Below, in pieces: positions 8,960 through 44,548 of a DNA stretch of 64,000 nucleotides; the stretch's first letter is position 1; each line of letters starts with the position of its first letter. The stretch comes from Escherichia phage ECO340P2, in sequence record OP172792; one strand, 5' to 3'. Under the pieces are notes generated by a model, which was given only the letters and a program-made list of their open reading frames with translations, had not been told where the DNA came from and did not search any database. Both the position numbers and the translations under genes were made by a program.

Positions 8960-8961
8960 GT

Positions 8962-13135: not shown

Positions 13136-13144
13136 GGAGAGAAC

Positions 13145-13288: not shown

Positions 13289-13294
13289 GAAACA

Positions 13295-13651
13295 ATGAGT
13301 GGTATTGAAAACAATATTTGTTACCAACCTCTTACCTGGATTGGTGAGGGTCATTATGCGCAACGTGTTATCGTCTGTGCTGCAAATAAGTATATTTTGA
13401 ATAATGGTGAAGAGTTAATTATTCCTTGTGTTCGACATGCAAATCCTGTACTATATGCACAGTTAAACGTGTTGAAAGAAGCAGGTGTAATCAACAAAAC
13501 TTTGTGCACACCAGATAATCAAGGCTTTATCGATCAGTATTACAATTGGTGGAGTCGTGCGGATGCTTATATCATCGCGGAAAATGCTGACCAGATCGAC
13601 CATGAGCGTAATGGTCACGACCATGAACTATTTAGCGAGGGATTATACTAA
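13295..13651 (+). CDS. hypothetical protein
   Basis: 118 aa ORF, RBS GAGGAGGG. Confidence 0.55.
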   Translation: MSGIENNICYQPLTWIGEGHYAQRVIVCAANKYILNNGEELIIPCVRHANPVLYAQLNVLKEAGVINKTLCTPDNQGFIDQYYNWWSRADAYIIAENADQIDHERNGHDHELFSEGLY

Positions 13652-14202: not shown

Positions 14203-14203
14203 T

Positions 14204-15136
14204 GTGGCTAAATTTAATTGCGACGATTTAGTTGAAAAAGGTTTAGTTCATAAGAAAACATATAAAGAAGGAGAGTATTCTGGTCTATCTGTTCTTAAGT
14301 ATAAGAACAAAGTTTTCTGGGATAACCTATGGAACATTGATTCTCGTCTTCTAGAATGTCGCGGAATCGTTGTTGACGCTGATGACAATGTTGTTATTTG
14401 GCCTTTCACTAAGATTTTTAATCGTTTTGAGAATGGCACAGATCTACCAGCGGATGAATTTGTAGATGTTGTTCGTAAAGTAAATGGTTTTATGGCCTCT
14501 GTAGGTGTATATAAAGGTCAACTTATCGTATCGACAACAGGAAGCCTTGAATCAGATTTTGCAAGTATTGCAAAGAATCATATTGTTTCAGAGTGTGATG
14601 ACATAGAACACTTCATCAAATGGACAGAAAGTGCAAAAGCAACTTTCCTTTTTGAAATCTGTGATCCTTCTGATCCGCATATTGTCGAAGAAGAACCAGG
14701 TGCATACTTAATTGGTGCCAGAATTCAAAACCCTGATGGGACAAGTTTTATGTTACCTGAAGGTGCTCTTGATGGAATTGCTTCTGTCACCAAATTTAAG
14801 CGTCCTGAAGTTCATCCGATGGTTAAGTTTTCAGATGTTGTTGAAATGTCTAAAGATTGTAAACACGAAGGGTTTGTAGTTCGTGAAACAAACTATCCGT
14901 TTAACTTACTCTTAAAGATTAAGTCACCATACTATCTTACTAAGAAGTTTCTTATGCGCGGTGGAGATAAAAAGTGGGATCTGATTTGGGATAATCCAAA
15001 AAATGCCAAACAAATTGTTGACGAAGAATATTACGCTTTGTTAGAATGGATTCGAAATAATTTTACGAAGACTCAATGGGTTGCTTTAAATCAGCAAGAG
15101 CGACGTGAAAAAATCGAAAACTTCTTTGGAGGATAA
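14204..15136 (+). CDS. rnlA: RNA ligase 1 (T4 RnlA-like)
   Basis: 310 aa; ECRGI, KIFNRFENG, KVNGFMASV (nucleotidyl-lysine motif), TTGSLESDFA match recalled T4 Rnl1 blocks. Confidence 0.75.
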   Translation: MAKFNCDDLVEKGLVHKKTYKEGEYSGLSVLKYKNKVFWDNLWNIDSRLLECRGIVVDADDNVVIWPFTKIFNRFENGTDLPADEFVDVVRKVNGFMASVGVYKGQLIVSTTGSLESDFASIAKNHIVSECDDIEHFIKWTESAKATFLFEICDPSDPHIVEEEPGAYLIGARIQNPDGTSFMLPEGALDGIASVTKFKRPEVHPMVKFSDVVEMSKDCKHEGFVVRETNYPFNLLLKIKSPYYLTKKFLMRGGDKKWDLIWDNPKNAKQIVDEEYYALLEWIRNNFTKTQWVALNQQERREKIENFFGG

Positions 15137-15541
15137 ATGAAACAACTTATCATTTTACGTGGCGTTTCAGGTGCTGGTAAATCTACAGTAGCAGAAATTA
15201 TTTCTGAAGGTTATTGGCCTATCTGTGAGGCAGATCAATATCATTACACAGAAAGTGGTGTTTACGATTGGAAGCCAGAAAATGTAGGTAAAGCACACGC
15301 ATGGTGTCAGAGTATTGTTCGTGATGCTATGGCATCTAATCTTAACAAGATTATTGTTTCTAACACTTCAACCACAGAGAAAGAACTTAAACCTTATCTA
15401 GCTCTTGCTGAAGAGTTTGGTTATCAAGTTATCTCTTTAGTTGTTGAAAATAGGCACGGTAATGATTCAATTCACGAGGTTCCACAATATATCCGTGATC
15501 AGCAAGAGAAACGTCTTCGTGGTTCACTTAAACTTCAATAA
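15137..15541 (+). CDS. P-loop kinase, polynucleotide 5'-kinase-like
   Basis: Walker A GVSGAGKST at N-terminus; 134 aa, size of Pnk kinase domain; adjacent to RNA ligase. Confidence 0.6.
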   Translation: MKQLIILRGVSGAGKSTVAEIISEGYWPICEADQYHYTESGVYDWKPENVGKAHAWCQSIVRDAMASNLNKIIVSNTSTTEKELKPYLALAEEFGYQVISLVVENRHGNDSIHEVPQYIRDQQEKRLRGSLKLQ

Positions 15542-15550
15542 GGAGAAATA

Positions 15551-15877
15551 ATGCAGATTTATACAGATGATCGTAAATATGAGACAATTTTAGATGAAGA
15601 TACTGGACGAATTACCGTTCTCCGTCACGGTGAAGAGTGGCGTGATGAAACGGGAGACAATTATATCTTGTCTCTGATTCATCTTATTGAACAAATGCGT
15701 GATGATTACGCTGAACTGCATTATGAAAATGAGGCTAATAAAGTAAAATTTGAAAATGAATTAGAAGAGAAAGAATCCGAAATGGTATATCTAAAAGAAG
15801 AGATCTCCCGTTTGGAGGAAGAGATTGATGCTCTTCAAGAAGAGATTTACGAACTCAACAACGAACTTAACGCTTAA
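15551..15877 (+). CDS. hypothetical coiled-coil protein
   Basis: 108 aa; Glu-rich heptad repeats at C-terminus. Confidence 0.5.
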   Translation: MQIYTDDRKYETILDEDTGRITVLRHGEEWRDETGDNYILSLIHLIEQMRDDYAELHYENEANKVKFENELEEKESEMVYLKEEISRLEEEIDALQEEIYELNNELNA

Positions 15878-15886
15878 GGAGGGATT

Positions 15887-16078
15887 ATGAAAAAAGATAT
15901 CGTTGTTGTTGGTTGGCTGACTTGCCCTTGTGGTAGTAATGACATAACTGTAAACACAGAGGGTGATAAAAATTATTTATTCTACGGGGATAAAATCACT
16001 TGCAATACCTGCGGACGTGTTGGTATTATAGAAACCGATGATTGTTGTGCTTTTGAATCTTGGGATGAAGAAGAATGA
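15887..16078 (+). CDS. hypothetical zinc-ribbon protein
   Basis: 63 aa; CPCG ... CNTCG cysteine pairs. Confidence 0.5.
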   Translation: MKKDIVVVGWLTCPCGSNDITVNTEGDKNYLFYGDKITCNTCGRVGIIETDDCCAFESWDEEE

Positions 16079-16296
16079 GTACTGCATTTTATGTTCGTAG
16101 CGGAGACGAGGATTTTCTAGCTACTTTTGATGACGGTGATCTTGAAGATATGTATGAAGATATGTTTGACTATGCCAAAGGGCAAGGTTTCACAAGCATT
16201 GATTACATGTTGGCAACATCTACAACGTTACTCGACGCAGATTTGGATGAAGTGTGTAACAGATTGAAAATTTCAGTTTTTAAATGGGAGGACTAA
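16075..16296 (+). CDS. hypothetical acidic protein
   Basis: 73 aa ORF. Confidence 0.5.
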   Translation: MSTAFYVRSGDEDFLATFDDGDLEDMYEDMFDYAKGQGFTSIDYMLATSTTLLDADLDEVCNRLKISVFKWED

Positions 16297-17411
16297 TGCA
16301 ACAAACAAATCAAACGCTGTATGGTAAAGATTCAAAAGGAAAACTTAAACAGTGGACAGTGTATACAGATGGTGCAGTTGTTACTGTAGCTCATGGAAGA
16401 GTAGGTGGAAAAATCACAGAAAAATCTTATACAGCAGAAGCAAAAAACATTGGTCGTTCCAATGAAACAACACCGGAAGAACAAGCTGAACTTGAAGCTT
16501 TTGCCAAATGGACAAAACAGTTAAAGAATGGCTATTATAAAACAAAAGAAGAAGCTGAAAACCATGTTCCTTCCACACCAATGAAATGCCAGGATTATAA
16601 AGATTATCCTGAAAGGGTTGTGTTCCCTGGTTATGCACAATACAAACTGAACGGGTTACGTTCTATGATTAACATGAAAGGAGAGTGTTTATCAAAAGCT
16701 GGGGAAGTGTATAACCTGCCACCTCATTGGAAAGGTATTCCAAACTTTATTAGTGAAGTTGTTGGTCATCCTCTTGATGGTGAAGTGTTTGCTGGGTTAG
16801 GTGTCCTTAGTCTGCAACAAATTAACAGCGCCTGGAAGAAGCATAATGCAAATACACCTTTGCTGAATTATTACGTATACGATATTCCAGTTCCAGATCT
16901 ACCGTTTGAAAAACGTGTTGATGTTCTTGCTGCTCTTAAGGCAGTAGTTGAAGATTATGGTCTTGATGAGCTTATTTGTGTAGTTCATACAGAGTATATT
17001 GAAAACCAAGAACAGTTTGATGCTTTCTATGAAAAAGCTTTACTTGAGAAAGCTGAAGGTGTAGTATATCGTAATGCTCACGGAGTTTACGAATTTGATA
17101 AACGTTCTTATGACGTTATTAAACGTAAGCCTCGCCATACCCTTGAAGTTAAAGTAACAAATTCAAAAAGTGATAAAAATGGCGATGGAGTGTTGACAGG
17201 TGAGATGGAAAATGGTAAAGTAGTCGAATTCTTAATGCGTAAAGATGCTCATGAGACTATCAATTATCGTAAAGCAGAGAATGCTTCTACCTTGATTAAT
17301 CAGTTCGTTGAAATAGAATATGAAGAATTTTCAGATGAAGGTATTCCAACAAAACCTGTTGGTGTTCGTATTCGAGAAATGATCCCAGGCACTTGGGAAC
17401 CAGCAGAGTAA
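16296..17411 (+). CDS. ATP-dependent DNA ligase
   Basis: adenylation motif KLNGLR, motif III PLDGEVF, motif V EGVVYR, motif VI VIKRKP; ATG after GGGAGG (ORF-track start 16284 is 4 codons earlier). Confidence 0.75.
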   Translation: MQQTNQTLYGKDSKGKLKQWTVYTDGAVVTVAHGRVGGKITEKSYTAEAKNIGRSNETTPEEQAELEAFAKWTKQLKNGYYKTKEEAENHVPSTPMKCQDYKDYPERVVFPGYAQYKLNGLRSMINMKGECLSKAGEVYNLPPHWKGIPNFISEVVGHPLDGEVFAGLGVLSLQQINSAWKKHNANTPLLNYYVYDIPVPDLPFEKRVDVLAALKAVVEDYGLDELICVVHTEYIENQEQFDAFYEKALLEKAEGVVYRNAHGVYEFDKRSYDVIKRKPRHTLEVKVTNSKSDKNGDGVLTGEMENGKVVEFLMRKDAHETINYRKAENASTLINQFVEIEYEEFSDEGIPTKPVGVRIREMIPGTWEPAE

Positions 17412-17464
17412 GGAGGAAAAATGTTCTTAGCCTATCATTGTGCAAAATACCTGGAGGCATTTTT

Positions 17465-17647
17465 ATGATAATTTTAGCAACAATTCTTATGATGTTGATA
17501 GCAATTGCTATTGTAATTCTGGCATCTTTTCCGGCTGATAAATGGTATTTCAATATTCCACGTATGCTTGTTTTCGGTTTCGCAGGAATTTACATGGGTG
17601 AGACTGTAGTAAATATTAGCAACTTTCTAGAAAGCTATTTTAAATAA
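17465..17647 (+). CDS. hypothetical small membrane protein
   Basis: 60 aa with two hydrophobic helices; RBS GGAGG. Confidence 0.45.
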   Translation: MIILATILMMLIAIAIVILASFPADKWYFNIPRMLVFGFAGIYMGETVVNISNFLESYFK

Positions 17648-17656
17648 GGAGTTATA

Positions 17657-18382
17657 ATGATCGAGAATTTTTTTAAAGATATTAAATTCGATACTGAATT
17701 TTTCAAAAATGCAGCAAAGCACGTGATTGATTGGAATGCCAAAGCACGAGGTGGTGAACAACCTGAATTCACTCAAGAGCTATTTATGTCTCAAATCGGG
17801 TTCGTTCGTGAAGAGCTTAAAGAGTATGAAACAGCCGCGAAAGTAAACGATCATGTAGAACTCTTGGATGCAGCAGCGGATATTTTTGTAGTATCCAGTT
17901 ATCTGACTTACATGTTCTTTGGTGAAGAACATACGATGAATTTCTTGGACTATGCTGTAGGCGATGTTTTTACTCCAACTGTGTATACCGATTTCGATGC
18001 TTTGGAACAAACATTTACAGAGCCAGTTCAAATGGCGCTAATGGCTGCGGGTATTATGCGTATGTCTCGTGACACTCTAATCCGTTCAAAATATCCAGAA
18101 AAGAAAGTTATTAAAGAGGTATTGAAAAGTAATGATTCCAAGTATCCAACTAAACAACAGTTGCTGAAAACTTGGAAAACTTCAGATATCGATTCAGCCA
18201 TTGCACAAGAATGCGCTGCAATTGAAGAACGAAATGCCAATCGTCCAGAAGGGGCATACACTGGTGTTCATGCCGTTTATAATGAAAAACAGAAAGTGTA
18301 TGTGTTCTTTGATGATAAAGGTAAGATCATGAAACCATCGACCTTTGTCAAACCTAATATTGCAGGTATTATTAACAAGTAA
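17657..18382 (+). CDS. hypothetical protein, possible MazG-like nucleotide pyrophosphohydrolase
   Basis: 241 aa; EELKEYETAAK...ELLDAAADIFVV resembles the MazG EExxE...D pattern; weak. Confidence 0.45.
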   Translation: MIENFFKDIKFDTEFFKNAAKHVIDWNAKARGGEQPEFTQELFMSQIGFVREELKEYETAAKVNDHVELLDAAADIFVVSSYLTYMFFGEEHTMNFLDYAVGDVFTPTVYTDFDALEQTFTEPVQMALMAAGIMRMSRDTLIRSKYPEKKVIKEVLKSNDSKYPTKQQLLKTWKTSDIDSAIAQECAAIEERNANRPEGAYTGVHAVYNEKQKVYVFFDDKGKIMKPSTFVKPNIAGIINK

Positions 18383-27851: not shown

Positions 27852-28937
27852 ATGGCAGCAATTAATTTACACAATGAAGTTTACAAAACAGGAAAATATC
27901 CAGTATTTTTGGGGGAGCAATTAGGGATCTTTGATTCTGTTAACGTAACTTATCCAGAAATGCACAAACTCTACAAACTTCAAAAAGCACAAGATTGGGA
28001 TGAAAACGAAGTTAATCTGGATCAGACACGTAAAGATTTCGTAGCTTGTTCTAAAAACAACTATGATGTTATGATTAAAAACTTATCGTTCCAATGGGAA
28101 AATGATTCTCTTGCAAAATCAATCATCACTTTGTTCTCTCCATTCTTGAGTAACAATGAAGCCTGTGCTATGATGATGAAGCAGAGTGAAATGGAAGTTC
28201 TCCATGCGTTAACGTATTCTGAAATAATCCGTCAATGTACTCCAGATCCAATTGAAGTCATCAATCAGATTATGATTAATGATAAAATTTTCAATCGTAT
28301 GGGTATCATTGCTGATATCATGGGTCAGTTGGAAGAAGCTGGTCATAAGTATGCTCTAGGATTGATTGAAGCTAACGATGAACTTCGCTTGCTGATTCTT
28401 AAAGGGATGGTAGCCCTGATTGGATTAGAAGGTATTCAGTTTATATCTTCCTTCTCTGCTACTTTTGCTATGGCAGAACAACAACTGTTTGTTGGGGCTT
28501 GTAAACTGATCCAGAAAATTATGCTAGATGAAATCTTGCATGTTAAGATGGACTATGCTGTAATTGATGCATTGATGCATGACCCAATTTGGCGTAAAAT
28601 TTACGAAGATAATATTGAAGAGTTGACTTTGATCCTCGACACTGTTGTTGAACAAGAGGAACAGTGGTGTGACTACCTGTTTAGTGAAGGTCGTTTTATT
28701 GTAGGTCTTAACGCCGAATTGTCTAAACAGTGGGTTTATTTCAATGCTGCTCCTATTTATCGTCGATTGAAAATGAAAGCCAAGTTTAAAGCACCTAAAC
28801 ATAGTCCTTTAGCTTGGATGGAAAAATGGTTGAATCCTGATTTGATTCAGTCAGCAGCCCAAGAGATTCAGTTAACTAATTACAAATTGAATTCAGCTAA
28901 CAAAGATCTCTCTGATGATGAGGAGCTTGACTTCTAA
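27852..28937 (+). CDS. nrdB: ribonucleotide reductase small subunit (class Ia NrdB)
   Basis: 361 aa; ferritin-like helices with conserved E/H positions; acidic C-terminal tail DDEELDF; next to nrdA. Confidence 0.85.
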   Translation: MAAINLHNEVYKTGKYPVFLGEQLGIFDSVNVTYPEMHKLYKLQKAQDWDENEVNLDQTRKDFVACSKNNYDVMIKNLSFQWENDSLAKSIITLFSPFLSNNEACAMMMKQSEMEVLHALTYSEIIRQCTPDPIEVINQIMINDKIFNRMGIIADIMGQLEEAGHKYALGLIEANDELRLLILKGMVALIGLEGIQFISSFSATFAMAEQQLFVGACKLIQKIMLDEILHVKMDYAVIDALMHDPIWRKIYEDNIEELTLILDTVVEQEEQWCDYLFSEGRFIVGLNAELSKQWVYFNAAPIYRRLKMKAKFKAPKHSPLAWMEKWLNPDLIQSAAQEIQLTNYKLNSANKDLSDDEELDF

Positions 28938-29146
28938 TGATTTTGAGATGTGTTGGTATAATCGACACATTCAAAGACGTTTTTGACAAAGGGGCTTCTT
29001 ATGAAGCCTCCGAAATGAAGAATGGTTTTTGTGATGTATTCGGTAAACGCCTGAAGAAAAACGGCGATCCTTGGCTAGGAGTTATGTCTTGTGGTCATAT
29101 TATTGTAAATGGTGTTGCCAAGTTTGAAATAATTAAGGAGGAATAA
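28937..29146 (+). CDS. hypothetical protein
   Basis: 69 aa ORF overlapping nrdB stop. Confidence 0.5.
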   Translation: MILRCVGIIDTFKDVFDKGASYEASEMKNGFCDVFGKRLKKNGDPWLGVMSCGHIIVNGVAKFEIIKEE

Positions 29147-29298
29147 TGGCTGAAAAACTTATTTTTTGTCCTGTGTGTGGTGGGACTGGACAGATGGAAG
29201 TGGAAATTATGGTAACATTTCCTTGCCTGAATTGTCATGGTGAAGGACGAGTAGTAGTCTTTGAAAAAGAAGGGTTGGAGGTAGAAGATGGAGAGTGA
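29146..29298 (+). CDS. hypothetical zinc-finger mini-protein (DnaJ-type CxxCxGxG repeats)
   Basis: 50 aa; CPVCGGTG and CLNCHGEG; AAGGAGG RBS; start overlaps previous stop (TAATG). Confidence 0.4.
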   Translation: MAEKLIFCPVCGGTGQMEVEIMVTFPCLNCHGEGRVVVFEKEGLEVEDGE

Positions 29299-29452
29299 AA
29301 AAGAGTATGTCCGAATTCCACGAGAATTAACAGATCACATTGCAGAAGCAATAGCTTTCGAAGCTAGATGTTGTGGAGGCATTGCTTACGATATTTATGA
29401 AGCAATTATTAAAGCTGCTCAAGAAGAGGAGGAGATGAAAAATGGGTATTGA
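29288..29452 (+). CDS. hypothetical small protein
   Basis: 54 aa; GGAGG upstream; bridges two annotated genes with overlapping stops. Confidence 0.35.
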   Translation: MESEKEYVRIPRELTDHIAEAIAFEARCCGGIAYDIYEAIIKAAQEEEEMKNGY

Positions 29453-29768
29453 TATCGAATGGCGTATGTTACAGGGTGCACCTTTTAATAAGTGGGAAGA
29501 GGTTGTAGGAGAAGATCCTAGAATTGAAGAAGAATTTGATGGAGATTTTAACTGGTTCTTACAAGAAGGTCTTGATTTAAGTCGTATCTCTCCTTTCTAC
29601 GATGCTGATGAGTCTTATTGCATATATGGTATTTATTTAGAAGGCGGAGAAGGAAGCGTAGCTGTAGATCTTGAGCAAGTAAATGAGAATGCAAAAGAAG
29701 CCTATGCAGAGCTACTTGAAAAATATAACATTAAAACGGAAACTATTATTTCTCAACACGTCTGGTAA
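29442..29768 (+). CDS. hypothetical acidic protein
   Basis: 108 aa ORF. Confidence 0.55.
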   Translation: MGIDIEWRMLQGAPFNKWEEVVGEDPRIEEEFDGDFNWFLQEGLDLSRISPFYDADESYCIYGIYLEGGEGSVAVDLEQVNENAKEAYAELLEKYNIKTETIISQHVW

Positions 29769-29777
29769 GGAGAGAAA

Positions 29778-30344
29778 ATGAAAGTAGAAAAAACAAAAAT
29801 TGAAGGTGCGGTAATTATCAAACCAGACGTTTATAAAGATGATCGTGGTTTCTTTTTAGAAACATACAATGAACAAAAATACGAAGATATCATTGGTAAA
29901 CAAACTTTCGTTCAAGATAATATGTCTAAATCAAACTTCGGTGTTTTGCGAGGAATGCACTTTCAAACAAATAACCCGCAAGGTAAGCTTGTTCGTTGTG
30001 TAAGTGGAGAAGTATTGGATTTCGCTGTAGATTTACGTAAAGATAGTCCAACTTACGGTGCTTGGGACGGTGTTGTTCTTCGTGCACGACACCATACGCA
30101 GTTTTGGCTTCCCCCTGGTTTGGCACATGGTTTTATAGTTTTGAGTATGGACGCTATCTTTGAATACAAATGCACAACTCCATACGACCCTTCTAGCGAA
30201 CAAAGTTTACGTTGGGATGATCCTGACATAGGGATCGATTGGGGCTTCGATATGATTTTTGACGAAGGTTTTAAACCTATCTTATCAACAAAAGATGCAA
30301 TGGCTAAATCTTTTCAACAGTTGCGTAGTGAGGGTGTATGCTAA
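29778..30344 (+). CDS. rmlC: dTDP-4-dehydrorhamnose 3,5-epimerase (RmlC-like cupin)
   Basis: 188 aa; FxETY...GVLRGMHFQ block and size match RmlC/RfbC. Confidence 0.75.
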   Translation: MKVEKTKIEGAVIIKPDVYKDDRGFFLETYNEQKYEDIIGKQTFVQDNMSKSNFGVLRGMHFQTNNPQGKLVRCVSGEVLDFAVDLRKDSPTYGAWDGVVLRARHHTQFWLPPGLAHGFIVLSMDAIFEYKCTTPYDPSSEQSLRWDDPDIGIDWGFDMIFDEGFKPILSTKDAMAKSFQQLRSEGVC

Positions 30345-31180
30345 CATATCTGGTATTGGGTGGTAATGGACAACTGGGACAAGCTTTACGTAAAGTGGTT
30401 CCTTCAAATGTATCTTTAATTTATCCTAAAGAACGTGTAGATATTACAAATTTTGAAGCTGTGCGAAACGCTATTGTTGAAGATTATGTAGACGGTGTTA
30501 TTAACTGCGCTGCTTATACGGCTGTAGATAAAGCAGAACATGATTTTGCTACTGCTTTGGCTGTTAATGCGTATGGACCTGCAAATATTGCGGCAGTGTG
30601 CAGCAAACTTAAAATTGATTTTGTGCATATTTCTACAGACTATATTTTTAATTATTCTCACCCTATTTTTGAAGATACTACACCTAACCCAATAAACAAT
30701 TATGGGTATACGAAAGAACTTGGTGAAAAAATGGTGCGAGGAGTTAACCCAAATGCATATATTATTCGAACAGCCTCGGTATATAGCGAATTTGGAAATA
30801 ACTTTCTAAAAACGATGTTGTCTCGCTATAACGATGGACAACGTGATTTTATTATTGTTGCTGATCAGTTCTCTTGTCCAACATATGCTCCAGATTTAGC
30901 AGAAGCTATTTTTGAAGTATTAAAAACAGGTTGGTCAAGGTCTGTTAAGACTTACCATTTTGCAGGAAGCCATTTTATTTCTTGGGCGGAGTTTGCGGAA
31001 AAGATCTTGACACAGATGCCAGAACCTGTTAAGATATCGGCGGTATCAGCTTCAACCTATAATGCTCCAGCAGCACGTCCGGTGAAGTCACAACTAGTAA
31101 CCAGTCACTACCTTACAAAATCAGATTTAAATAAAGGTATTGAACAGTCTTTAGCAGTATTACTTAATAAGGAGAGGTAA
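30338..31180 (+). CDS. rmlD: dTDP-4-dehydrorhamnose reductase (RmlD-like short-chain reductase)
   Basis: 280 aa; N-terminal Rossmann LVLGGNGQLGQAL; YxxxK-type context; adjacent to rmlC. Confidence 0.7.
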   Translation: MLTYLVLGGNGQLGQALRKVVPSNVSLIYPKERVDITNFEAVRNAIVEDYVDGVINCAAYTAVDKAEHDFATALAVNAYGPANIAAVCSKLKIDFVHISTDYIFNYSHPIFEDTTPNPINNYGYTKELGEKMVRGVNPNAYIIRTASVYSEFGNNFLKTMLSRYNDGQRDFIIVADQFSCPTYAPDLAEAIFEVLKTGWSRSVKTYHFAGSHFISWAEFAEKILTQMPEPVKISAVSASTYNAPAARPVKSQLVTSHYLTKSDLNKGIEQSLAVLLNKER

Positions 31181-32931: not shown

Positions 32932-33435
32932 TTGATGGGTGTAGCAACAATAGCTATCGGAAGAAGCGGTATAGATGAGTGCTATCAAACGGGACTCGTA
33001 AAACCTAACGAATTTCGTCAAATTTGTGTAAACCATATTGAAAAAGAGATTGCTCTTACTTTAGAGAATATGACCCTCCGAGATAAACTGGAAATGTTTA
33101 AATGTTGGTGTCTAGGAGAAGATTGGCTTTTAAACCATTTTCAAGAACTTTCTGATAGTAAAGAAAGCTTGTTTGATTGTATAATAGGAATAGCTGGCTC
33201 CGATCCTACCCTTCTGCACATAACAGAAGAAGAGGCGAAGTTACTGTTCTTAAGTAATTTGTTTAATAAGAAAGCACTGCTTGTTCGTGATTGCAGTGAT
33301 CTTCTTAATAACCCGCTCGCAACGTCTGATCAAATTTTTGTTGACAAAGAGACACTACGTGCGATAGAATACATCTGCAAATATGTGAATGGCGGGAAAG
33401 CGGTTCTTAAAACATTAACAGAGGAGGAAGAATAG
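32932..33435 (+). CDS. hypothetical protein
   Basis: 167 aa ORF, RBS AGGAGG. Confidence 0.5.
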   Translation: MMGVATIAIGRSGIDECYQTGLVKPNEFRQICVNHIEKEIALTLENMTLRDKLEMFKCWCLGEDWLLNHFQELSDSKESLFDCIIGIAGSDPTLLHITEEEAKLLFLSNLFNKKALLVRDCSDLLNNPLATSDQIFVDKETLRAIEYICKYVNGGKAVLKTLTEEEE

Positions 33436-34127
33436 TGACGACAATTATTGCAACCAAAAATAAGATTTTGAGTGACGGTAAGGTAACTTTTGGTGGACGT
33501 GTAGATTCTATTAATTTCAAAAAGGTCCGAAAAATTGGAGATTACCTTGTAGGTGGTGCTGGTCGTCTGACCTCCGTGCTTTCTTTCTTTCAATGGTTTG
33601 AACAAAATCTACAGTGCGAAGCAGCACGTGATGCTGTCCCTGGTTTGATGATTCACTCTGATCCAGATAAAGAAGATGAAGAGTTTATTGCACTTGTTGT
33701 TCATCCAGACGGACGTATTTTCCTGCACGAAGGTAACAACCCAACACGTGCATATCCGATTGATGAAGAATATTATGCAGTAGGGAGTGGGTCAGATTTT
33801 GCTTTAGCTGCTCTTGATGCAGGGGCAACACCAGAACAGGCTATGGAAGTAGCTAAAAAGCGAGATGCTTTTTCTGGTGGTGAAACATTTATTGAAGAAC
33901 AAGACGAGATTATTGAATTAACAGATGATGATTTAGAAAACTTCTCCAAAGAAGAATTGATCAATCTTTTGAAATTCGGTAATCCCTACGGTGAAGAAGA
34001 ACCTCGTAACGTGGCAGGTAACGAGGCGGATACTGAAGAAAAATCTGTTGCAGAAAACAACTTGACTTCTAAATCTGAAAATATTAATCTCGTAAATGTG
34101 GCGGATTTCGAAGGAACCGCTATTTAA
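33435..34127 (+). CDS. HslV-like N-terminal nucleophile peptidase (proteasome beta-type fold) with acidic C-terminal tail, GTG start
   Basis: mature N-terminus TTIIA, KVRK, VGGAG and AVGSGSDFALAA align with recalled E. coli HslV blocks. Confidence 0.65.
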   Translation: MTTIIATKNKILSDGKVTFGGRVDSINFKKVRKIGDYLVGGAGRLTSVLSFFQWFEQNLQCEAARDAVPGLMIHSDPDKEDEEFIALVVHPDGRIFLHEGNNPTRAYPIDEEYYAVGSGSDFALAALDAGATPEQAMEVAKKRDAFSGGETFIEEQDEIIELTDDDLENFSKEELINLLKFGNPYGEEEPRNVAGNEADTEEKSVAENNLTSKSENINLVNVADFEGTAI

Positions 34128-37459: not shown

Positions 37460-37767
37460 TGTATAAGATTACAATTATTCAAAGTGTAGGTAATATCCGT
37501 AAAGAAGTTATCTTAGAAACAGAAGATGTTAATCTTGTTCGTGAGATTGTTCTTAAGGAAGATAACCTGCAAGCTGTAGAATCAGATGCACCGAATCTTA
37601 TGGTGGATCAAGAATATTCTGAACTTCGTCGTATTTTTGAAGAGATTCAGAAGAAAGAAACACAACCTACCATAAAACCTTTTGGCCCTTATGATCCGAG
37701 CAATCCTAGCAGTCCTTGGATCATGAGAAATACGGAACCCTATACACCTTTTGAAATTACTTGTTGA
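37459..37767 (+). CDS. hypothetical protein
   Basis: 102 aa ORF. Confidence 0.5.
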   Translation: MYKITIIQSVGNIRKEVILETEDVNLVREIVLKEDNLQAVESDAPNLMVDQEYSELRRIFEEIQKKETQPTIKPFGPYDPSNPSSPWIMRNTEPYTPFEITC

Positions 37768-37774
37768 GGTGATT

Positions 37775-38356
37775 ATGGCAGAACTGTTCTATACGGGAGT
37801 TGGAAGTAGAGACATATCCGAAGAAGAGTGGGCTTTGATGGTAGGTATAGGGAAATGGCTTTCAAACCTTGGGTTTAAATTAAGGTCTGGGAAGGCAGAG
37901 GGTAGTGATTCTGCTTTTGAAACAGGTGTCCAAGAGTCTGAAAATCCTACTAACAAGGAGATTTATGTTCCTTGGGAAAATTTCAAAGGTAATCAGATTC
38001 CAGGGGATGTTATTGTTCTTGCAAAACCAGATACAATGAACTATGCTATCTCTGTGCAGTGGATCAAAGATGTTCACCCAGCCTATGAAAAGCTTAAGCA
38101 GGGTGCCAGAAAATTGCACCAACGTAATGTGCATCAAGTGTTAGGTAGAGATTTGGAGAATCCTGCTCCATCATGTTTCTTGTTGGCTTGTGCTAATACT
38201 GATAAACATGGAGATGCAAAAGGTGGAACAGCTACGGCTTGGAAGATAGCTAAAGCCAATAATGTTCCTTGTTTAAACATTCGTGGGAAAACAAAACAAG
38301 AGATTTACGATTTTCTACGACCTTTGGTAATGAGGGCAATAACAAGTGATTCCTAA
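37775..38356 (+). CDS. Rossmann-fold protein, DprA/SLOG-like
   Basis: YTGVGSRD ... LRSGKAEGSDSAFETG resembles DprA/LOG-type nucleotide-binding loops; ATG after GAGGTGA. Confidence 0.4.
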   Translation: MAELFYTGVGSRDISEEEWALMVGIGKWLSNLGFKLRSGKAEGSDSAFETGVQESENPTNKEIYVPWENFKGNQIPGDVIVLAKPDTMNYAISVQWIKDVHPAYEKLKQGARKLHQRNVHQVLGRDLENPAPSCFLLACANTDKHGDAKGGTATAWKIAKANNVPCLNIRGKTKQEIYDFLRPLVMRAITSDS

Positions 38357-40095: not shown

Positions 40096-40104
40096 TAAAT
40101 AATA

Positions 40105-40126
40105 ACCCGCTTCGGCGGGTTTTTTA
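40105..40126 (+). terminator. rho-independent terminator
   Basis: ACCCGC-TTCG-GCGGGT hairpin followed by TTTTTTA. Confidence 0.6.
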
Positions 40127-40155
40127 TTGACAGAGATAGGGAAGCTTGATAAACT
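40127..40155 (+). promoter_or_regulatory. sigma70-like promoter (TTGACA-17-TAAACT)
   Basis: abuts terminator T-tract (TTTTTATTGACA), same arrangement as at 21717. Confidence 0.4.
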
Positions 40156-40185: not shown

Positions 40186-41127
40186 ATGGTGTTAATTGGT
40201 AGCCGTGCATTACAAATTCATGCTATGGATATGGGAAAAGACTTGTATCGCCCTTGTGTAGATTTAGATTACCTGTGTACAGAACAAGAGTGGGAAGAAT
40301 TATCAAAAATGTTCTCTCAAGAGGAGTTTGTTGAACTTGTAGAACGTAAAGGGAACAAGGGCCATGTCAAAATGATAGCTGGTGCACATTTGGAATACGA
40401 TATTGCTTCTCAAGGAGATAGCACAGAAGCTTTGATTAGTTATTGTGAAGAGTCTGATGATATTCGTCGAACTTACGCTGGACATGTTGTTGCTCCTTTA
40501 GATGTGCTCTACCTTCTTAAAATGAGTCATCGTTTTAAAAAGGATAGTCCTCACTTCTTTAAAACTATGAAAGATATTCATTTCATGCGATCACTGGGCG
40601 CAAAGATCCCAGAAAATCTTAAGAGTATTTATGAGTTGCGTGAGAAAGAAACATACACTTACTCTCATCCAAACTTAAACGTAAAAAGTAAAGACTTCTT
40701 TAAAGGTGATGAGGTTCCGTATGTTTATGATCATGATTCTATCCACGAAGCCATTGCGGTAATGGATGCTCCAGCATATAAATCTTATATGAAAGATGGA
40801 AGTGAAGTTATGACCAGCAAAGAAAAGTTTTTTGCTCAACCAAAACATGTGCGCCTGTTAGGTGTTTATGAAGAAGCGTGTGTTTTGGCTTTGGAACGTT
40901 CACAAATTCCTTTCGGTGAAGAGATCGGAGGTCCAACACCTAAGCAAAGTTTTATGATGGCTTTATCTAAAGTTTGCACATCCATTACTAGTGGTTGGTT
41001 TAGGGAATATGCCTGGGAGAACTTTTACGTTGTTACTAAACTATATGAAAACATGGGTGAAAACGACTATGTTGAACGTTTTAAAGCTAATCGCCATGTA
41101 GTAAAGCCTTTTGAAGGAGGTTATTAA
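40186..41127 (+). CDS. hypothetical protein
   Basis: 313 aa ORF, RBS AGAGGAG. Confidence 0.55.
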   Translation: MVLIGSRALQIHAMDMGKDLYRPCVDLDYLCTEQEWEELSKMFSQEEFVELVERKGNKGHVKMIAGAHLEYDIASQGDSTEALISYCEESDDIRRTYAGHVVAPLDVLYLLKMSHRFKKDSPHFFKTMKDIHFMRSLGAKIPENLKSIYELREKETYTYSHPNLNVKSKDFFKGDEVPYVYDHDSIHEAIAVMDAPAYKSYMKDGSEVMTSKEKFFAQPKHVRLLGVYEEACVLALERSQIPFGEEIGGPTPKQSFMMALSKVCTSITSGWFREYAWENFYVVTKLYENMGENDYVERFKANRHVVKPFEGGY

Positions 41128-41128
41128 T

Positions 41129-41524
41129 ATGTGTGGATATCTTTCAGAAAGTTATTTCAAAGTGACCCATGAGGATTTAGAAAAAGCACGATTGAAATTG
41201 ACAGCTATTATTGAATACTCTAATACTGTTGATCACAGATTAAAGACTACTAAAGTATCTGTTCCTTGTTGGTTAGGTTTACGGCATAAAACAATGTCTC
41301 AACATGATCATGTTGTTCGAGAGATGCATGGTTGGTGTTGGTTTCACGATGTGGCTCTGCATTTTGGTTATATTACAGAAGAAGAACATAGATTCTGTGA
41401 GCTAACATATCGTATTCCAACCCTTCACGATTTAGATTTGTGGAGGAAAGCAAGTGAGATCTTTCTGACAGAAAGTGATTGGCGTAAAGTTATGGCTTGT
41501 CTTGAATGGAGGGGCAATGAGTAA
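41129..41524 (+). CDS. hypothetical protein
   Basis: ATG after GGAGG; ORF-track start 41111 is inside previous gene. Confidence 0.5.
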   Translation: MCGYLSESYFKVTHEDLEKARLKLTAIIEYSNTVDHRLKTTKVSVPCWLGLRHKTMSQHDHVVREMHGWCWFHDVALHFGYITEEEHRFCELTYRIPTLHDLDLWRKASEIFLTESDWRKVMACLEWRGNE

Positions 41525-42200
41525 AACAGTTTTGTCTATGTTTGACGGATCTGGTATCATGGTGTTACGTTATGCCGAAGCAGGTCACAAGTGTTTTTGT
41601 GTAAACGCTGATGAAGGGGACCACGGTAAATACGAGGTCAGGATGGAGCACCCAAACATAACCTATGTGAATGCTTGGATAGATTCTACATTCAACCCTG
41701 AAGATCACGGAATACCTAAACCCGATATTATTTTTGGATTTCCACCTTGCACTATGTTAGCAGGTAGTGGTAGCAAACACGAACGTAGCACAGAGGAATT
41801 AGATGAAGCTTTAGCTAATATTCGTGTAGTGGAAGCTTTGGGTAACAAATACAATGTTCCTTGGATGATTGAGAACCCAGTAGGTAAACTTTCAACCTTA
41901 TGGCGTAAACCTGATTTTTACTTTGATCCTTATGAGTATGGTGGGTATTTGTTTGAAGAGGAAGGAAGCTTTCATCCTAAAATGCCTACCCGCGATGGAT
42001 ATACAAAGAAAACTTGTATCTGGTACGGAAATGGTTTTGTTCAACCAGTGAAGAAACCAGTAGATCATATAGGCTGTTTCTGGGGTTGGAAAAGCTTGGG
42101 TGGAGCTAGTGCAAAAACAAAACAACTTAGATCGCTAACAGCACGTGGTTTTGCTCGTGCAGTGTTTTTGTCTAACAATCTTCTAGATAAGGAGAAATGA
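41517..42200 (+). CDS. compact DNA (cytosine-5) methyltransferase-like protein
   Basis: motif I-like MFDGSG, motif IV-like FGFPPC, motif VI-like WMIENPVGKL; only ~227 aa, no obvious target-recognition domain. Confidence 0.45.
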   Translation: MSKTVLSMFDGSGIMVLRYAEAGHKCFCVNADEGDHGKYEVRMEHPNITYVNAWIDSTFNPEDHGIPKPDIIFGFPPCTMLAGSGSKHERSTEELDEALANIRVVEALGNKYNVPWMIENPVGKLSTLWRKPDFYFDPYEYGGYLFEEEGSFHPKMPTRDGYTKKTCIWYGNGFVQPVKKPVDHIGCFWGWKSLGGASAKTKQLRSLTARGFARAVFLSNNLLDKEK

Positions 42201-42853
42201 TGTCAAATTCAAAACAATTAGTTGCTTATCAAGTAGATCGTAATGATGGGGAAGGAAGTGTTGTTATTTTCAGTACACACGGTCTTGAGGCTCGTCGAAA
42301 AGGTGCATATCGTTTAGAATGTGAGTTTGAAGACTGCACAAGCCACCGTGTCAAACAATTCGATCAATATGCTGATAAAGGCTTCGTCCCTATCAAAGCC
42401 TTACTGGAAGATGGTTGGTGGGTATATTCTGCTTTTGATTACTCAAAACTGGAGGAGTCAGCTTCGTGCGCCTCCGAGATCGAATATGATGATTACTATG
42501 ACACTCTCTACCTTCCAGAATGGCTTGTCTTTTCTCCTGATGAGAGAAGTGTCTGGAAAACTTGGGAAGAAATGGAGAGACATGCATATAGCATCAATGA
42601 AGCCTTAGATCGTAAAGCTTGGTTTATTGAGGCAGTAAAGGCGGCATACCCTCAATTCTCATTTTGTGATTTCACTGGTGGCCCAGGATACATTACACAT
42701 ACAGCCTCTTTTGAGTTCCCTGGCTCACGTTATAAAGGTAATGTTTATTGGGATTGGGATGAAAATAAACAACCTTCGGCTCAAGACTTCCGTTGCTATG
42801 TTTGCCAAGGTGATCAAGAAGCCCTTGACAAATACCTTCAAAGTCTGATATAG
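42197..42853 (+). CDS. hypothetical protein
   Basis: 218 aa ORF overlapping previous stop. Confidence 0.5.
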   Translation: MMSNSKQLVAYQVDRNDGEGSVVIFSTHGLEARRKGAYRLECEFEDCTSHRVKQFDQYADKGFVPIKALLEDGWWVYSAFDYSKLEESASCASEIEYDDYYDTLYLPEWLVFSPDERSVWKTWEEMERHAYSINEALDRKAWFIEAVKAAYPQFSFCDFTGGPGYITHTASFEFPGSRYKGNVYWDWDENKQPSAQDFRCYVCQGDQEALDKYLQSLI

Positions 42854-42870
42854 TGTCAACATCTGAACAA

Positions 42871-42897
42871 AGCCCCCTGTTTCAGGGGGTTTTTCTT
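42871..42897 (+). terminator. rho-independent terminator
   Basis: CCCCCTG-TTTC-AGGGGG hairpin followed by TTTTTCTTT. Confidence 0.55.
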
Positions 42898-42910
42898 TAT
42901 AGGAGGAAAT

Positions 42911-43396
42911 ATGTTTCAAGTAAATGTCAATGTGCATAATAGTTACTCTGATTGTGAAACGTGTGGCTATAGTTCATCTAATGTTGTTCGTATCAGTGGT
43001 GATTTGGGAGAAGCTTCTTTTGGAGAAGAAGCAAGTTGCTTTAGCGGTATGGATGCAGAATGGAATGATATTGCACATTGGTTGGTGAGCAAACTAAAAG
43101 AAAAAGAGAAACCATTTCCTACTCTGCTTGATCGTTCTCTTGTAGAAGACGCAGGTAAAGCCTATGCAGATTACGCTTATGCAGATGGGAAGTACTTGGA
43201 AGATGACAAGGCTAACCATTTGCTTTATGTTTACTATGAAGCTGAAGCTGCCTATGATAATTATTATAGTATGTCCAATATCTTACGGCTATTTGCAGAG
43301 TTTGATATCTATTTTGAAGTAGAGTTTTCAGAAGATGATACTTACGAGTATGATTCTTATGATCCATTTGAGGAGGAAGAATGCCAAGACGAGTGA
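42911..43396 (+). CDS. hypothetical highly acidic protein
   Basis: 161 aa; Asp/Glu/Tyr-rich C-terminal half; 3' end overlaps the Sir2 gene start. Confidence 0.5.
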   Translation: MFQVNVNVHNSYSDCETCGYSSSNVVRISGDLGEASFGEEASCFSGMDAEWNDIAHWLVSKLKEKEKPFPTLLDRSLVEDAGKAYADYAYADGKYLEDDKANHLLYVYYEAEAAYDNYYSMSNILRLFAEFDIYFEVEFSEDDTYEYDSYDPFEEEECQDE

Positions 43397-44196
43397 TTTT
43401 TGTAAGTGGTGCAGGTTTAAGTGCAGACAGTGGGATTCGAACATTCAGAACAGACACAGATAGCGGTCGTGCTTTATGGGAAGAATACGATTTAGAAGAG
43501 GTCTGCAATATTGGAGCTTTCCAAGCAGGTTATCGTGTGAGAACATCTCCAGATCTTCCGGTGGTTGGAGGTGTAGACGAGAACGGTATAGATTTATATG
43601 CCAAAACACACGAATTTTATAACAAAAGACGTGTTGAGCTTAAAAACGTACAACCTAATGCTGCGCATCTTCAAATAGCCAAATGGTTTAAGGAATATCC
43701 TAACCAGGTAGTAAACTTGACAACAAATGTCGATGATCTACTAGAGCGAGCAGGGGTAGACAGGGACTCGGTTGTTCACGTGCACGGTTATCTTCCTGAA
43801 GTAGTCTGCCGTATGCACCCTGGAGATTACAAAACACTGGTGGATATTGGTTACAATAGTATAAACATAGATGATTATAACTGGGTGAAGCCTAATGTAG
43901 TCTTCTTTGGGGAAGCTGCTCCACTTTACACGGATATGTATCATATTTTTGATACATTGACGTCTCAAGATATGGTGATTGTAGTAGGCTGCTCTAATCA
44001 AGTTATCAATTTTAACTGGGAGCTTTTTCCTGCTCTTAACATCGGGACAAAAATGGTCGTAGTTAATCCAGGAGTTAATTACGAAGAAACACTTCTCTAT
44101 GAAGATCGTGGAGTTTTTGTTTACCGAGAAAAAGCTGTAACAGCCTTCAGTAATGAAGGTTTCATTAAAATGGTCGAAGACCACTTAAACAAATAA
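43381..44196 (+). CDS. Sir2-family (sirtuin-like) NAD-dependent protein
   Basis: N-terminal VIFVSGAGLSADSGIRTFR matches the sirtuin NAD-binding signature GAGxSxxSGIPxFR. Confidence 0.7.
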   Translation: MPRRVIFVSGAGLSADSGIRTFRTDTDSGRALWEEYDLEEVCNIGAFQAGYRVRTSPDLPVVGGVDENGIDLYAKTHEFYNKRRVELKNVQPNAAHLQIAKWFKEYPNQVVNLTTNVDDLLERAGVDRDSVVHVHGYLPEVVCRMHPGDYKTLVDIGYNSINIDDYNWVKPNVVFFGEAAPLYTDMYHIFDTLTSQDMVIVVGCSNQVINFNWELFPALNIGTKMVVVNPGVNYEETLLYEDRGVFVYREKAVTAFSNEGFIKMVEDHLNK

Positions 44197-44207
44197 ACCA
44201 CTCAAGG

Positions 44208-44228
44208 GGCTTCGGCCCCTTTTCTTAT
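44208..44228 (+). terminator. rho-independent terminator
   Basis: GGGGC-TTCG-GCCCC hairpin followed by TTTTCTT. Confidence 0.55.
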
Positions 44229-44240: not shown

Positions 44241-44513
44241 ATGACTGAAGAAATCCGTGATTACTACCTTGCACATTACGTTTACTACTTTGCCAATGCT
44301 ACACAAAAAGGGGAAGGTAATCTTTACTTGGCAACAGGACATGGAACAGGTGTTAGGAAATCAAATATTGATAACGCTTTGGCTCAAGTAGCGGCTGGGC
44401 TAGAAGATAAACTTCAAACCCCTGTAGTTGTAGTGATGCAAAATATAAGTTACCTAGCAAGTTGTACTGAAACCGAATTTAACGCGTCTGAAACGCAATC
44501 TAACGAAGAATAA
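44241..44513 (+). CDS. hypothetical protein
   Basis: 90 aa ORF, last gene of the plus-strand block. Confidence 0.5.
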   Translation: MTEEIRDYYLAHYVYYFANATQKGEGNLYLATGHGTGVRKSNIDNALAQVAAGLEDKLQTPVVVVMQNISYLASCTETEFNASETQSNEE

Positions 44514-44548
44514 AACAAAGGCACCCAAGTGGGTGCCTTTTCTGTTTT
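44513..44548. terminator. bidirectional rho-independent terminator between convergent gene blocks
   Basis: 7 bp stem GGCACCC/GGGTGCC, loop AAGT, flanked by AAAACAAA on the left and TTTTCTGTTTT on the right. Confidence 0.6.

Follow-up and report, generated by a model that had tools for sequence, protein, structure and literature searches.

Which function a phage may derive from a sirtuin gene, and whether this gene acts together with its neighbours, is the question raised by a locus in the window considered here, i.e. the entire 64,000-nucleotide stretch of DNA that was analysed, which comes from a Phapecoctavirus-like (phAPEC8/ESCO13-type) E. coli myophage. An initial annotation had placed a Sir2-family gene in one operon with two acidic genes of unknown function upstream of it. 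The three open reading frames are real and are all encoded on the plus strand (Table 1), with the Sir2 gene located at the end of the early/middle gene block. In comparison to phage ESCO13 they are under purifying selection, with dN/dS values between 0.03 and 0.09 (0.08–0.09 for the Sir2 gene).

Table 1 Coordinates of the features in the window
Feature	Position	Strand	Remark
cREC	12791-13135		RNA-repair module
Phosphoesterase	13651-14202		RNA-repair module
Rnl	14204-15136		RNA-repair module
Kinase	15137-15541		RNA-repair module
DNA ligase	16284-17411		RNA-repair module
MazG-like	17657-18382		RNA-repair module
DNA (cytosine) methyltransferase gene	41517..42200	+	context; stop overlaps start of 218-aa gene
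217/218-aa acidic protein (phrog_8514)	42200..42853 (alternative start 42197)	+	predicted coupling to methyltransferase gene, not to Sir2
Sigma70-like promoter match, TTGACA-N18-TATAGT with TG extension	42825..42854	+	overlaps last codons and stop of 218-aa gene
Intrinsic-terminator-like hairpin with T-run	42869..42893	+	11 pairs, 6 GC; between 218-aa and 161-aa genes
161-aa very acidic protein (phrog_9509)	42911..43396	+	upstream partner in predicted two-gene cassette
Dual-coding junction	43371..43396	+	Sir2 Shine-Dalgarno (SD) GAGGAGG, ATG and first codons (MPRRV) coincide with 161-aa C-terminus EEEECQDE-stop
Sir2-family gene, 271 aa	43381..44196	+	phage-specific zinc-less CobB/SIRT5-like clade
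Terminator-like hairpin	44204..44221	+	immediately 3' of Sir2; annotated terminator in Schickermooser
90-aa ORF (phrog_15991)	44241..44513	+	own SD; last gene of the plus-strand block
Bidirectional terminator	44517-44540		after 90-aa ORF

The 271-aa product matches the Pfam family SIR2 (PF02146; 1.6e-24, 87.2 bits vs a cut-off of 24) far beyond chance and is, judged by its sequence, a genuine sirtuin. It also matches PHROG 2162 over the full length (5.9e-109, residues 2–271 on profile positions 10–271 of 277), and the NAD-binding signature on which the initial annotation had based its assignment, GAGLSADSGIRTFR, occupies residues 10–23. Among proteins with a solved structure, the deacylases CobB, Sir2Af2, Sir2Tm and SIRT5 come nearest, headed by E. 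coli CobB (1s5p, 2.6e-19). The top NCBIfam models all carry the name 'NAD-dependent protein deacylase', with scores under the cut-off; the equivalog/subfamily thresholds are not reached (111.2 bits vs 243 for NF001753 and 92.3 vs 320 for NF040867).

Alignment of the catalytic and NAD-binding residues, named in the initial annotation as the check on this assignment, finds both. The Rossmann NAD motif GAGxS (G10-A11-G12, S14/S17) and the cofactor loop F22-R23 are present together with the catalytic histidine (H135-G136) and the nicotinamide-pocket residues N116 and D118 in the motif T114-T-N116-V-D118. Furthermore, F176-G-E178, G203-C-S205, N229 and the class-III Tyr-x-x-Arg pair Y80/R83 are found, the latter in a FYNKRR context which aligns with FYNARR of CobB. 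Invariant in nine phage Sir2 proteins and CobB are G10-A-G12, F22, R23, Y80, N116, H135, G136, E178, G203 and N229; R83 is replaced by Leu in the Serratia BF and G17 proteins. The Gln of the TQNID motif corresponds to Thr115, and Thr, Ala or Ser is found at this position throughout the phage clade. Taken together, the product appears catalytically intact.

The small domain is altered. The four zinc-binding cysteines of cellular sirtuins are absent: the product has cysteines at positions 42, 143 and 204 only. Of these, C143 alone aligns with a zinc cysteine of CobB, and phi92 and the rV5-like protein have Tyr at this position, SP15 has Val. A DIGY motif specific to the clade stands in place of the zinc module; after GCS, the loop on the substrate side carries NFNWELFP, likewise specific to the clade, where CobB has VYPAA, and a 21-residue insertion (52–72) is specific to the Stephanstirmvirinae. 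With DIGY in place of the zinc module and the NFNWELFP loop, the phage enzyme may act on another macromolecular substrate than the cellular sirtuins do.

Homologues of this Sir2 exist in 981 phage records (tblastn), and the PHROG 2162 sirtuin is carried by T5-like, rV5-like (Vequintavirinae), phi92/phAPEC8-like, KVP40-like and jumbo phages. A GenBank protein (P0025) is 100% identical to the 271-aa product. In dozens of near-identical genomes, and in phAPEC8/phi92-type E. coli phages generally, a Sir2-like gene had been annotated before. The clade has been discussed in the literature (PMC9503650; PMC5107563), where a zinc-less Sir2 was reported for KVP40-like phages and the gene was listed for T5 and GAP32 (PMC5107563). 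A literature search revealed no experimental or biochemical study of any phage sirtuin.

Both upstream proteins are acidic as had been noted, with a pI of 4.61 for the 218-aa protein and a pI of 4.05 and a net charge of −28 for the 161-aa protein. Structurally both are orphans. The proposed operon, however, stands for the 161-aa and Sir2 genes alone, and that all three products form one three-component system is very improbable. At ATGATG/TGA, the 218-aa start and the stop codon of the preceding methyltransferase gene overlap; the 218-aa gene is predicted to be translationally coupled to this gene and belongs with that upstream unit. The methyltransferase gene itself matches phrog_757 (1.5e-84) as well as, weakly, the PADLOC models for type II methyltransferase and DruM, and in relatives it is annotated as Dcm/DNA methyltransferase. 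A general linkage of the 218-aa family to methyltransferases was rejected, since in distant phages its members do not lie beside such a gene. Phages of Vibrio, Pseudomonas and Xanthomonas which lack Sir2 also carry this family (158 records), and there it is located among replication genes next to an exonuclease, primase, ligase or RusA gene.

The 218-aa and 161-aa genes are separated by a terminator-like hairpin, which is kept with a different stem sequence in phi92, muut and three further relatives (L018, L020 and L022), in phi92 and muut also with a different loop. The authors of the Schickermooser genome annotated its equivalent as a terminator, and terminator-like sites as a class are in excess (16 found vs 5.0±2.1 expected). 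A promoter-like site lies here as well. With 11 of 12 positions it is the strongest sigma70-like match of the region, and phi92 and muut conserve it in the form TATAAT. The site falls within coding sequence that is itself conserved, and promoter-like matches overall show no enrichment (25 found vs 20.9 expected). Scans with Rfam and for tRNAs found no RNA elements between 40 and 46 kb.

In favour of a three-gene system, about 13 Stephanstirmvirinae-like loci keep the succession of methyltransferase gene, 218-aa family, a variable slot and Sir2, and in two of the relatives (L059 and L069) the gene for the 218-aa homologue, a small ORF and the Sir2 gene adjoin one another with no hairpin in between. 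Phage hairpin terminators frequently leak, so that read-through past the hairpin is possible. The common gene order is, however, confined to one collinear lineage, the three families are distributed independently (158, 131 and 981 records for the 218-aa, 161-aa and Sir2 family, respectively), about 850 records possess a Sir2 with neither partner, and the synonymous divergence of the 218-aa gene differs from that of the 161-aa/Sir2 pair. Because of the coupling to the methyltransferase gene, the conserved hairpin and the occurrence of the 218-aa family in Sir2-less phages, the three-gene unit is unsupported.

The 161-aa and Sir2 genes, on the other hand, are predicted to form a translationally coupled two-gene cassette, because they overlap by 16 nt, are bracketed by terminator-like hairpins and have a divergence level of their own. 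The SD sequence of Sir2 is located inside the 161-aa gene, and the synonymous divergence from ESCO13 is 0.37–0.42 for the pair vs 0.13–0.17 for the flanking genes. A further ORF of 90 aa downstream of the cassette carries the label 'Sir2-like protein' in ESCO13 and Ro121lw. This label was rejected as an annotation error, since the ORF has no similarity to Sir2.

In the 161-aa protein, an N-terminal beta domain with the invariant residues H9, C15-x2-C18 and C43 precedes a bundle of helices, and the protein ends in an acidic tail which is disordered. A functional motif 'EEEECQD' in this tail was considered and rejected: the ECQD ending is explained by dual coding because the same DNA encodes the SD sequence and the start codon of Sir2. 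In muut_81 this ending is lost and the gene no longer overlaps Sir2. The acidic tail as such is a trait of the entire family, which comprises 131 records. Remote homology for this family was tried and rejected: a profile search among 1.84 billion representatives yielded 17 proteins, of which P0154 (900 aa, 8 repeats) looks like a compositional false positive.

The 161-aa partner is considered lineage-restricted and dispensable, since relatives have lost its gene, exchanged it for another or separated it from Sir2. It is deleted in the KP2025-like L020, an unrelated ORF of about 85 aa takes its place in L059 and L069, an HNH endonuclease gene lies between it and Sir2 in muut, and in GAP32 it lies 36 kb away from Sir2. 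It is also absent at the T5-like and rV5-like Sir2 loci. A common Sir2 partner across the phage clades was rejected, because the gene directly upstream of Sir2, which encodes a cREC protein in rV5-like phages and a 67-aa product in T5-like ones, bears no relation to the 161-aa gene. With its putative His/Cys3 zinc knuckle, the 161-aa protein might conceivably be a dedicated sirtuin modulator, i.e. an inhibitor or timer, a substrate-targeting subunit or an in-trans supplier of the lost zinc module, or else an unrelated DNA-mimic anti-restriction protein merely sharing the cassette; such roles are regarded as a long shot. If a modulator role were true, the pair would represent a new two-component sirtuin system.

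The sequence does not separate the functions listed in the initial annotation, among which deacylation or ADP-ribosyl transfer agrees best with the conserved residues. The locus as a whole is explained best, if tentatively, by a phage-clade sirtuin in a two-gene cassette whose likeliest function is that of a CobB-like NAD-dependent protein deacylase. The sirtuin would bind NAD+, and an oxygen of the bound macromolecular substrate would attack C1' of the nicotinamide ribose with release of nicotinamide. His135 would then activate the ribose 2'-OH, by which the adduct could be resolved to an ADP-ribose derivative. The likeliest substrate would be acyl-lysine on host or phage proteins, and Tyr80/Arg83 may read negatively charged acyl groups. 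Such a deacylase would reset protein acylation during infection, with the 161-aa protein as an optional lineage-specific accessory rather than an obligate subunit. Against the deacylase, the score lies far under the NCBIfam CobB equivalog cut-off (92 vs 320 bits), and the clade-wide loss of the TQNID Gln, the missing zinc module and the NFNWELFP loop have to be counted as well. In addition, the Sir2 genes of rV5/Mydo-like and jumbo phages are located inside RNA-end-healing clusters, which favours another reading.

In this main rival, predicted by Iyer, Burroughs, Anantharaman and Aravind (2022; PMC9503650, section 3.7.3), the phage sirtuin would move ADP-ribose from NAD+ onto an RNA 2'-phosphate in the manner of Tpt1/KptA. 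His135 would subsequently activate the ribose 2''-OH, so that ADP-ribose 1''-2'' cyclic phosphate is released and the RNA is left with a clean 2'-OH; this would be the closing step in the repair of tRNAs cleaved by anticodon nucleases of the host. At about 13 of 80 IMG/VR loci, the rV5/Mydo-like ones, Sir2 is found between PNK and DNA ligase genes and adjoins genes for an Rnl1-type RNA ligase, cREC, a phosphoesterase and a MazG-like protein. In five jumbo phage loci it lies between 2H/NadV and Nudix, and in T5-like phages a HAD phosphatase gene follows downstream. The entire module exists also in the present genome beside a cluster of 10 to 11 tRNA genes, Tyr80/Arg83, a pair which in SIRT5 and CobB binds a carboxylate, could bind phosphate, and the altered small domain suits a non-peptide substrate. 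However, the Sir2 gene of the window is located 25–30 kb away from the module (12.8–18.4 kb), whose kinase-DNA ligase slot is filled by three small ORFs, so that the neighbourhood feature is missing here. The T5-like phages, the biggest group of carriers in this sample (about 36 of 80 loci), have no RNA ligase or PNK gene within 6 kb of Sir2, and the case is built solely on gene neighbourhood. RNA repair is thus rated as unlikely, though as the strongest of the alternatives.

The third possibility is an NAD-consuming factor, either a free NADase or an ADP-ribosyltransferase, by which the phage would take over the host, exclude superinfecting phages or counter NAD-based immunity. SIR2 domains act as NADases in ThsA, DSR and SIR2-HerA, and the loss of the zinc module is common to the phage Sir2 and the defence SIR2 domains, which lack it. 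NadV (NAMPT) adjoins Sir2 in the jumbo phage loci, which suggests that nicotinamide is made and recycled. The relation to NAD-depleting defence SIR2 proteins raised in the initial annotation nevertheless comes down to a single PADLOC match (PDC-S65, E 0.005, 38 residues), which is not significant. Domain searches of the neighbours revealed no HerA, TIR, pAgo/APAZ, SLOG or macro partner at the locus; an adjacent macro-domain gene of the SirTM type is absent, and the 161-aa, 218-aa and 90-aa neighbours contain no Pfam domain. The product is a bare sirtuin core of 271 aa without sensor or partner domain, and a free NADase would have no need of the FGE strand or of the Tyr/Arg residues in the acyl pocket, which are conserved. 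Moreover, depletion of NAD would presumably hurt a lytic phage which itself encodes NAD-requiring functions. An NAD consumer is therefore judged improbable, and the CobB-like deacylase is still preferred.

For the locus itself these results carry little weight, as the gene was already annotated and the idea of a three-gene operon fails. The wider point is that the sirtuin clade spans about a thousand phage genomes, the model phage T5 among them, and that two mutually testable hypotheses exist for it, protein deacylation and ADP-ribosyl transfer to RNA 2'-phosphates. The former, if true, would mean phage control over host protein acylation; the latter would add a new sirtuin chemistry and a new step of phage tRNA repair.

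In comparison to known systems, the defence SIR2 NADases (ThsA, DSR1/2, SIR2-HerA, SIR2-pAgo) share the SIR2 superfamily fold and the use of NAD+ with the phage Sir2, whereas the latter keeps residues of the acyl-lysine type, has no fused or adjacent sensor and resides on a lytic phage. The two-step chemistry of Tpt1/KptA is established: an anionic oxygen attacks C1' of the ribose of NAD+, followed by transesterification through the 2'-OH. This is a formal parallel to the steps of a sirtuin, from which a link may be drawn, but the fold is unrelated and the Sir2 gene is located here outside of the RNA-repair cluster. The other phage Sir2 proteins of PHROG 2162 are full-length family matches with 38–94% identity, and they have the motifs and the zinc-less small domain in common with the present one. 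They differ in their neighbours, which are RNA ligase/PNK/cREC, HAD, Nudix or NadV genes at other loci and the acidic 161-aa gene upstream in the present one. With CobB (PDB 1S5P, 6RXJ) and class III sirtuins such as SIRT5 the phage protein shares GAGxS, the F-R loop, the pocket Asn and Asp, the His of the HG motif, the FGE strand, GxS and Tyr-x-x-Arg. In contrast to CobB, to which it is about 33% identical, it is devoid of the zinc cysteines, has Thr for the TQNID Gln and possesses DIGY, NFNWELFP and the insertion 52–72.

The Sir2 gene of Escherichia phage ECO340P2 is an ordinary, previously annotated member of a published clade of phage sirtuins. Its product carries GAGLSADSGIRTFR at residues 10-23, the signature already recognised in the initial annotation, and the assignment has firm statistical support (Pfam SIR2 87.2 bits, cut-off 24; phage Sir2 family PHROG 2162 5.9e-109, full length). 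The GenBank protein P0025 of this phage is 100% identical, and records of relatives label the gene 'NAD-dependent protein deacetylase of SIR2 family' or 'Sir2-like'. Both the zinc-less state and the spread, which takes in T5 and GAP32 among others (Skliros et al. 2016, PMC5107563), and the clade with its RNA-repair neighbourhoods (Iyer et al. 2022, PMC9503650) have been described. The 3.2-kb region is ~94.7% identical to Phapecoctavirus genomes (phAPEC8, ESCO13, Schickermooser and others; Stephanstirmvirinae, a family-level group), and at least 80% of it is covered by 58 records.

Features in the window and their coordinates
Feature	Position	Strand	Remarks
10 tRNA genes (ARAGORN)	7114-9036	-	Met x2, Ile, Pro, Gln, Gly, Thr, Asn, Ser, Arg
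11th tRNA-like match	8255-8339		Rfam
rV5-type RNA end-healing/sealing module	12791-18382		cREC (PF20274), calcineurin-like phosphoesterase, T4 Rnl1-type RNA ligase, P-loop kinase, ATP-dependent DNA ligase, MazG/PRA-PH-like pyrophosphatase
Three small ORFs	15551-16296		slot between kinase and DNA ligase genes, occupied by Sir2 in Mydovirus relatives
dTDP-rhamnose biosynthesis genes	28000-31180 (approx.)		RmlC, RmlD by Pfam; rmlA, rmlB annotated in relatives; adjoin NrdAB, ThyX, glutaredoxin genes
HslV/proteasome-like peptidase homologue and 'DprA-like' protein	33435-34127 and 37751-38356		peptidase: weak Pfam match, HslV family label in relatives
Terminator	40104-40121		upstream of 313-aa gene
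Promoter-like site	40127-40155		follows the terminator, usual order
313-aa gene	40186-41127		DUF7277 + DUF7275 (2.8e-76)
218/217-aa gene	42197/42200-42853	+	pI 4.61
Sigma70-like site and hairpin	42825-42893		TTGACA-N18-TATAGT/TATAAT, TG extension
Hairpin between 218-aa and 161-aa genes	42869-42893		11-bp stem, T-run
161-aa gene	42911-43396	+	pI 4.05, net charge -28
Sir2 gene	43381-44196	+	271 aa
Antisense ORF	43741-44184	-	147 aa, wholly within Sir2
Hairpin after Sir2	44204-44221		
90-aa ORF	44241-44513		phrog_15991
Hairpin after 90-aa ORF	44517-44540		bidirectional

The 'DprA-like' protein, named so in relatives, is without Pfam match in the window and might hold a nucleotide-binding Rossmannoid domain. 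The antisense ORF, which no relative annotates, is most likely spurious.

The initial annotation had placed Sir2 in a three-gene unit with two acidic proteins. All three ORFs are present as that annotation gives them. Both upstream proteins are indeed acidic, and the overlap with the 161-aa gene is real: Sir2 begins 16 nt before the 161-aa gene ends, and its Shine-Dalgarno sequence, GAGGAGG, is located within the 161-aa coding sequence. The unit holds as a two-gene cassette of these genes, but not for the 218-aa gene, whose start overlaps the stop of the DNA methyltransferase gene upstream of it (ATGATG/TGA) and which is separated from the cassette by a conserved hairpin. Terminator-like sites are enriched in the region (16 found, 5.0±2.1 in shuffles). 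In phi92, muut and several IMG/VR relatives a hairpin stands at this same position although its stem and loop differ in sequence, which argues that the structure itself is conserved; the authors of the Schickermooser record annotated it as a terminator. Measured against ESCO13, the methyltransferase and 218-aa genes have a dS of 0.13-0.14 and the 90-aa ORF one of 0.17, whereas the 161-aa and Sir2 genes reach 0.37-0.42; this pair therefore forms a separate mosaic block with edges coinciding with the hairpins. The best reading is a division into 313 aa, 137 aa, methyltransferase and 218 aa, then 161 aa and Sir2, then 90 aa, the first unit being headed by the DUF7277/DUF7275 protein; RNA polymerase may read through the hairpins.

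A conserved, near-consensus match to a sigma70-type promoter lies upstream, not downstream, of the terminator hairpin, and both are retained in phi92, muut and KP2025-like phages. Transcripts from it would start with the hairpin and T-run. The site overlaps conserved codons (LDKYL..stop), and coding constraint may explain its conservation. The 90-aa ORF is called 'Sir2-like protein' in the ESCO13 and Ro121lw records; with a blastp E of 1.9 and no Pfam SIR2 match, this label looks like a propagated annotation error.

By tblastn, the Sir2 family was found in 981 phage records (T5-like 54-62% identity, rV5-like ~49%, Klebsiella Mydovirus ~58%, KVP40-like ~38%, jumbo phages 30-39%), the 161-aa family in 131, almost all Stephanstirmvirinae with distant members in the jumbo phages GAP32, RaK2 and pEa_SNUABM, and the 218-aa family in 158. 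The latter include Vibrio (VHML-like), Pseudomonas and Xanthomonas phages that lack Sir2; there the gene has exonuclease, primase, ligase and RusA genes around it. The upstream families are tiny in large protein collections: 10 (161-aa) and 14 (218-aa) clusters among 5.8 billion proteins, and 17 representatives of the 161-aa family among 1.84 billion; Sir2 has 1,796.

Neighbours were scanned at 80 IMG/VR Sir2 loci. T5-like loci (~36) have PhoH and NrdD upstream and a HAD phosphatase downstream; rV5/Mydo-like loci (~13) phosphoesterase, Rnl, cREC and PNK before Sir2 and DNA ligase and MazG-like after it; jumbo phages (~5) NadV and 2H before, Nudix and PhoH after. In the Stephanstirmvirinae-like loci (~13) the methyltransferase and 218-aa family are followed by a variable slot and Sir2, a common order limited to one collinear lineage. 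Phapecoctavirus and Justusliebigvirus have the 161-aa gene in this slot. In ~140-kb phages of a more distant lineage (L059, L069; 5700-6010) its place is taken by an unrelated ~85-aa basic ORF, which overlaps the 218-aa-family gene as well as Sir2, and the hairpin is absent. In the KP2025-like locus (5881-6010) the slot is empty and the 161-aa-type gene missing; the ~21 codons that are left, which are similar to the N-terminal leader of phi92 gp039 (MNFQDMINYQTQCV..) and in frame with the Sir2 ATG, suggest a deletion, possibly yielding an N-terminally extended Sir2. In muut the 161-aa-like gene and Sir2 are separated by an inserted 246-aa ORF (3468-4208); its HNH-type motif IDHDDGNKLNNAESNL, recognised by eye, makes it probably a homing endonuclease. 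In GAP32, 36 kb lie between the 161-aa-like gene and Sir2. Sir2 thus needs neither upstream protein. Furthermore, Sir2 is 91% identical to that of phi92 (dS 0.74) with flanking genes of 38-72% identity (dS ~1.7-1.8 or saturated), which suggests exchange of the gene between Stephanstirmvirinae genera.

The AF2 model of the 161-aa protein is confident (pLDDT 82.5): a beta-hairpin domain at the N-terminus (1-47) is followed by four helices and a single last strand, and the acidic tail is disordered. H9, C15, C18 and C43 are invariant, and a zinc knuckle is plausible because the CxxC sits at a hairpin turn. The near-invariant ending 'EEEECQD' is encoded over the Sir2 Shine-Dalgarno sequence, ATG and MPRRV codons and is for the most part a consequence of dual coding; in muut the overlap is lost and the ending gone. 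Acidic tails are nevertheless present across the family.

Purifying selection acts on all genes (dN/dS 0.01-0.09 versus ESCO13). In an alignment of nine phage Sir2 representatives and E. coli CobB, G10-A-G12, S17-G18, F22-R23, F79-Y80-N81, R84, P92-N93, H96, T114, N116, H135-G136, P171, E178, G203 and N229 are invariant. The protein is shown to be a sirtuin whose catalytic core is intact and conserved under selection. It would bind NAD+, a substrate oxygen would attack the ribose C1' with departure of nicotinamide, and His135 would then activate the 2'-OH. The substrate is tentatively taken to be protein acyl-lysine, at somewhat less than even probability: every close characterised relative is a deacylase, the acyl-lysine residues are kept, and the T5-like phages, the largest carrier group among the 80 loci, have no RNA ligase nearby. 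An RNA 2'-phosphate is a rather unlikely substrate. The RNA-repair neighbourhoods of relatives, independently confirmed here, the altered small domain and a phosphate that the Tyr/Arg pair could read speak for it, as does the same module at 12.8-18.4 kb beside 10 to 11 tRNA genes, but 25-30 kb separate this module from Sir2. Least supported, and improbable, is a free NADase or counter-defence function; a search of the PADLOC defence models with Sir2 gave no significant match.

With CobB/SIRT5-type sirtuins the phage Sir2 shares the catalytic His, the FGE strand lining the acyl-lysine tunnel and the class-III Tyr-x-x-Arg pair Y80/R83 (FYNKRR, in CobB FYNARR). It scores far below the cut-off of the NCBIfam CobB models. 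The four cysteines that bind zinc in cellular sirtuins are all unconserved in the phage clade (relatives have Tyr or Val in place of C143), and in TQNID the Gln gives way to Thr, Ala or Ser. Motifs of the clade's own are DIGY, situated in the former zinc module, and NFNWELFP, which follows GCS; the Stephanstirmvirinae Sir2 carries a 21-residue insertion (52-72).
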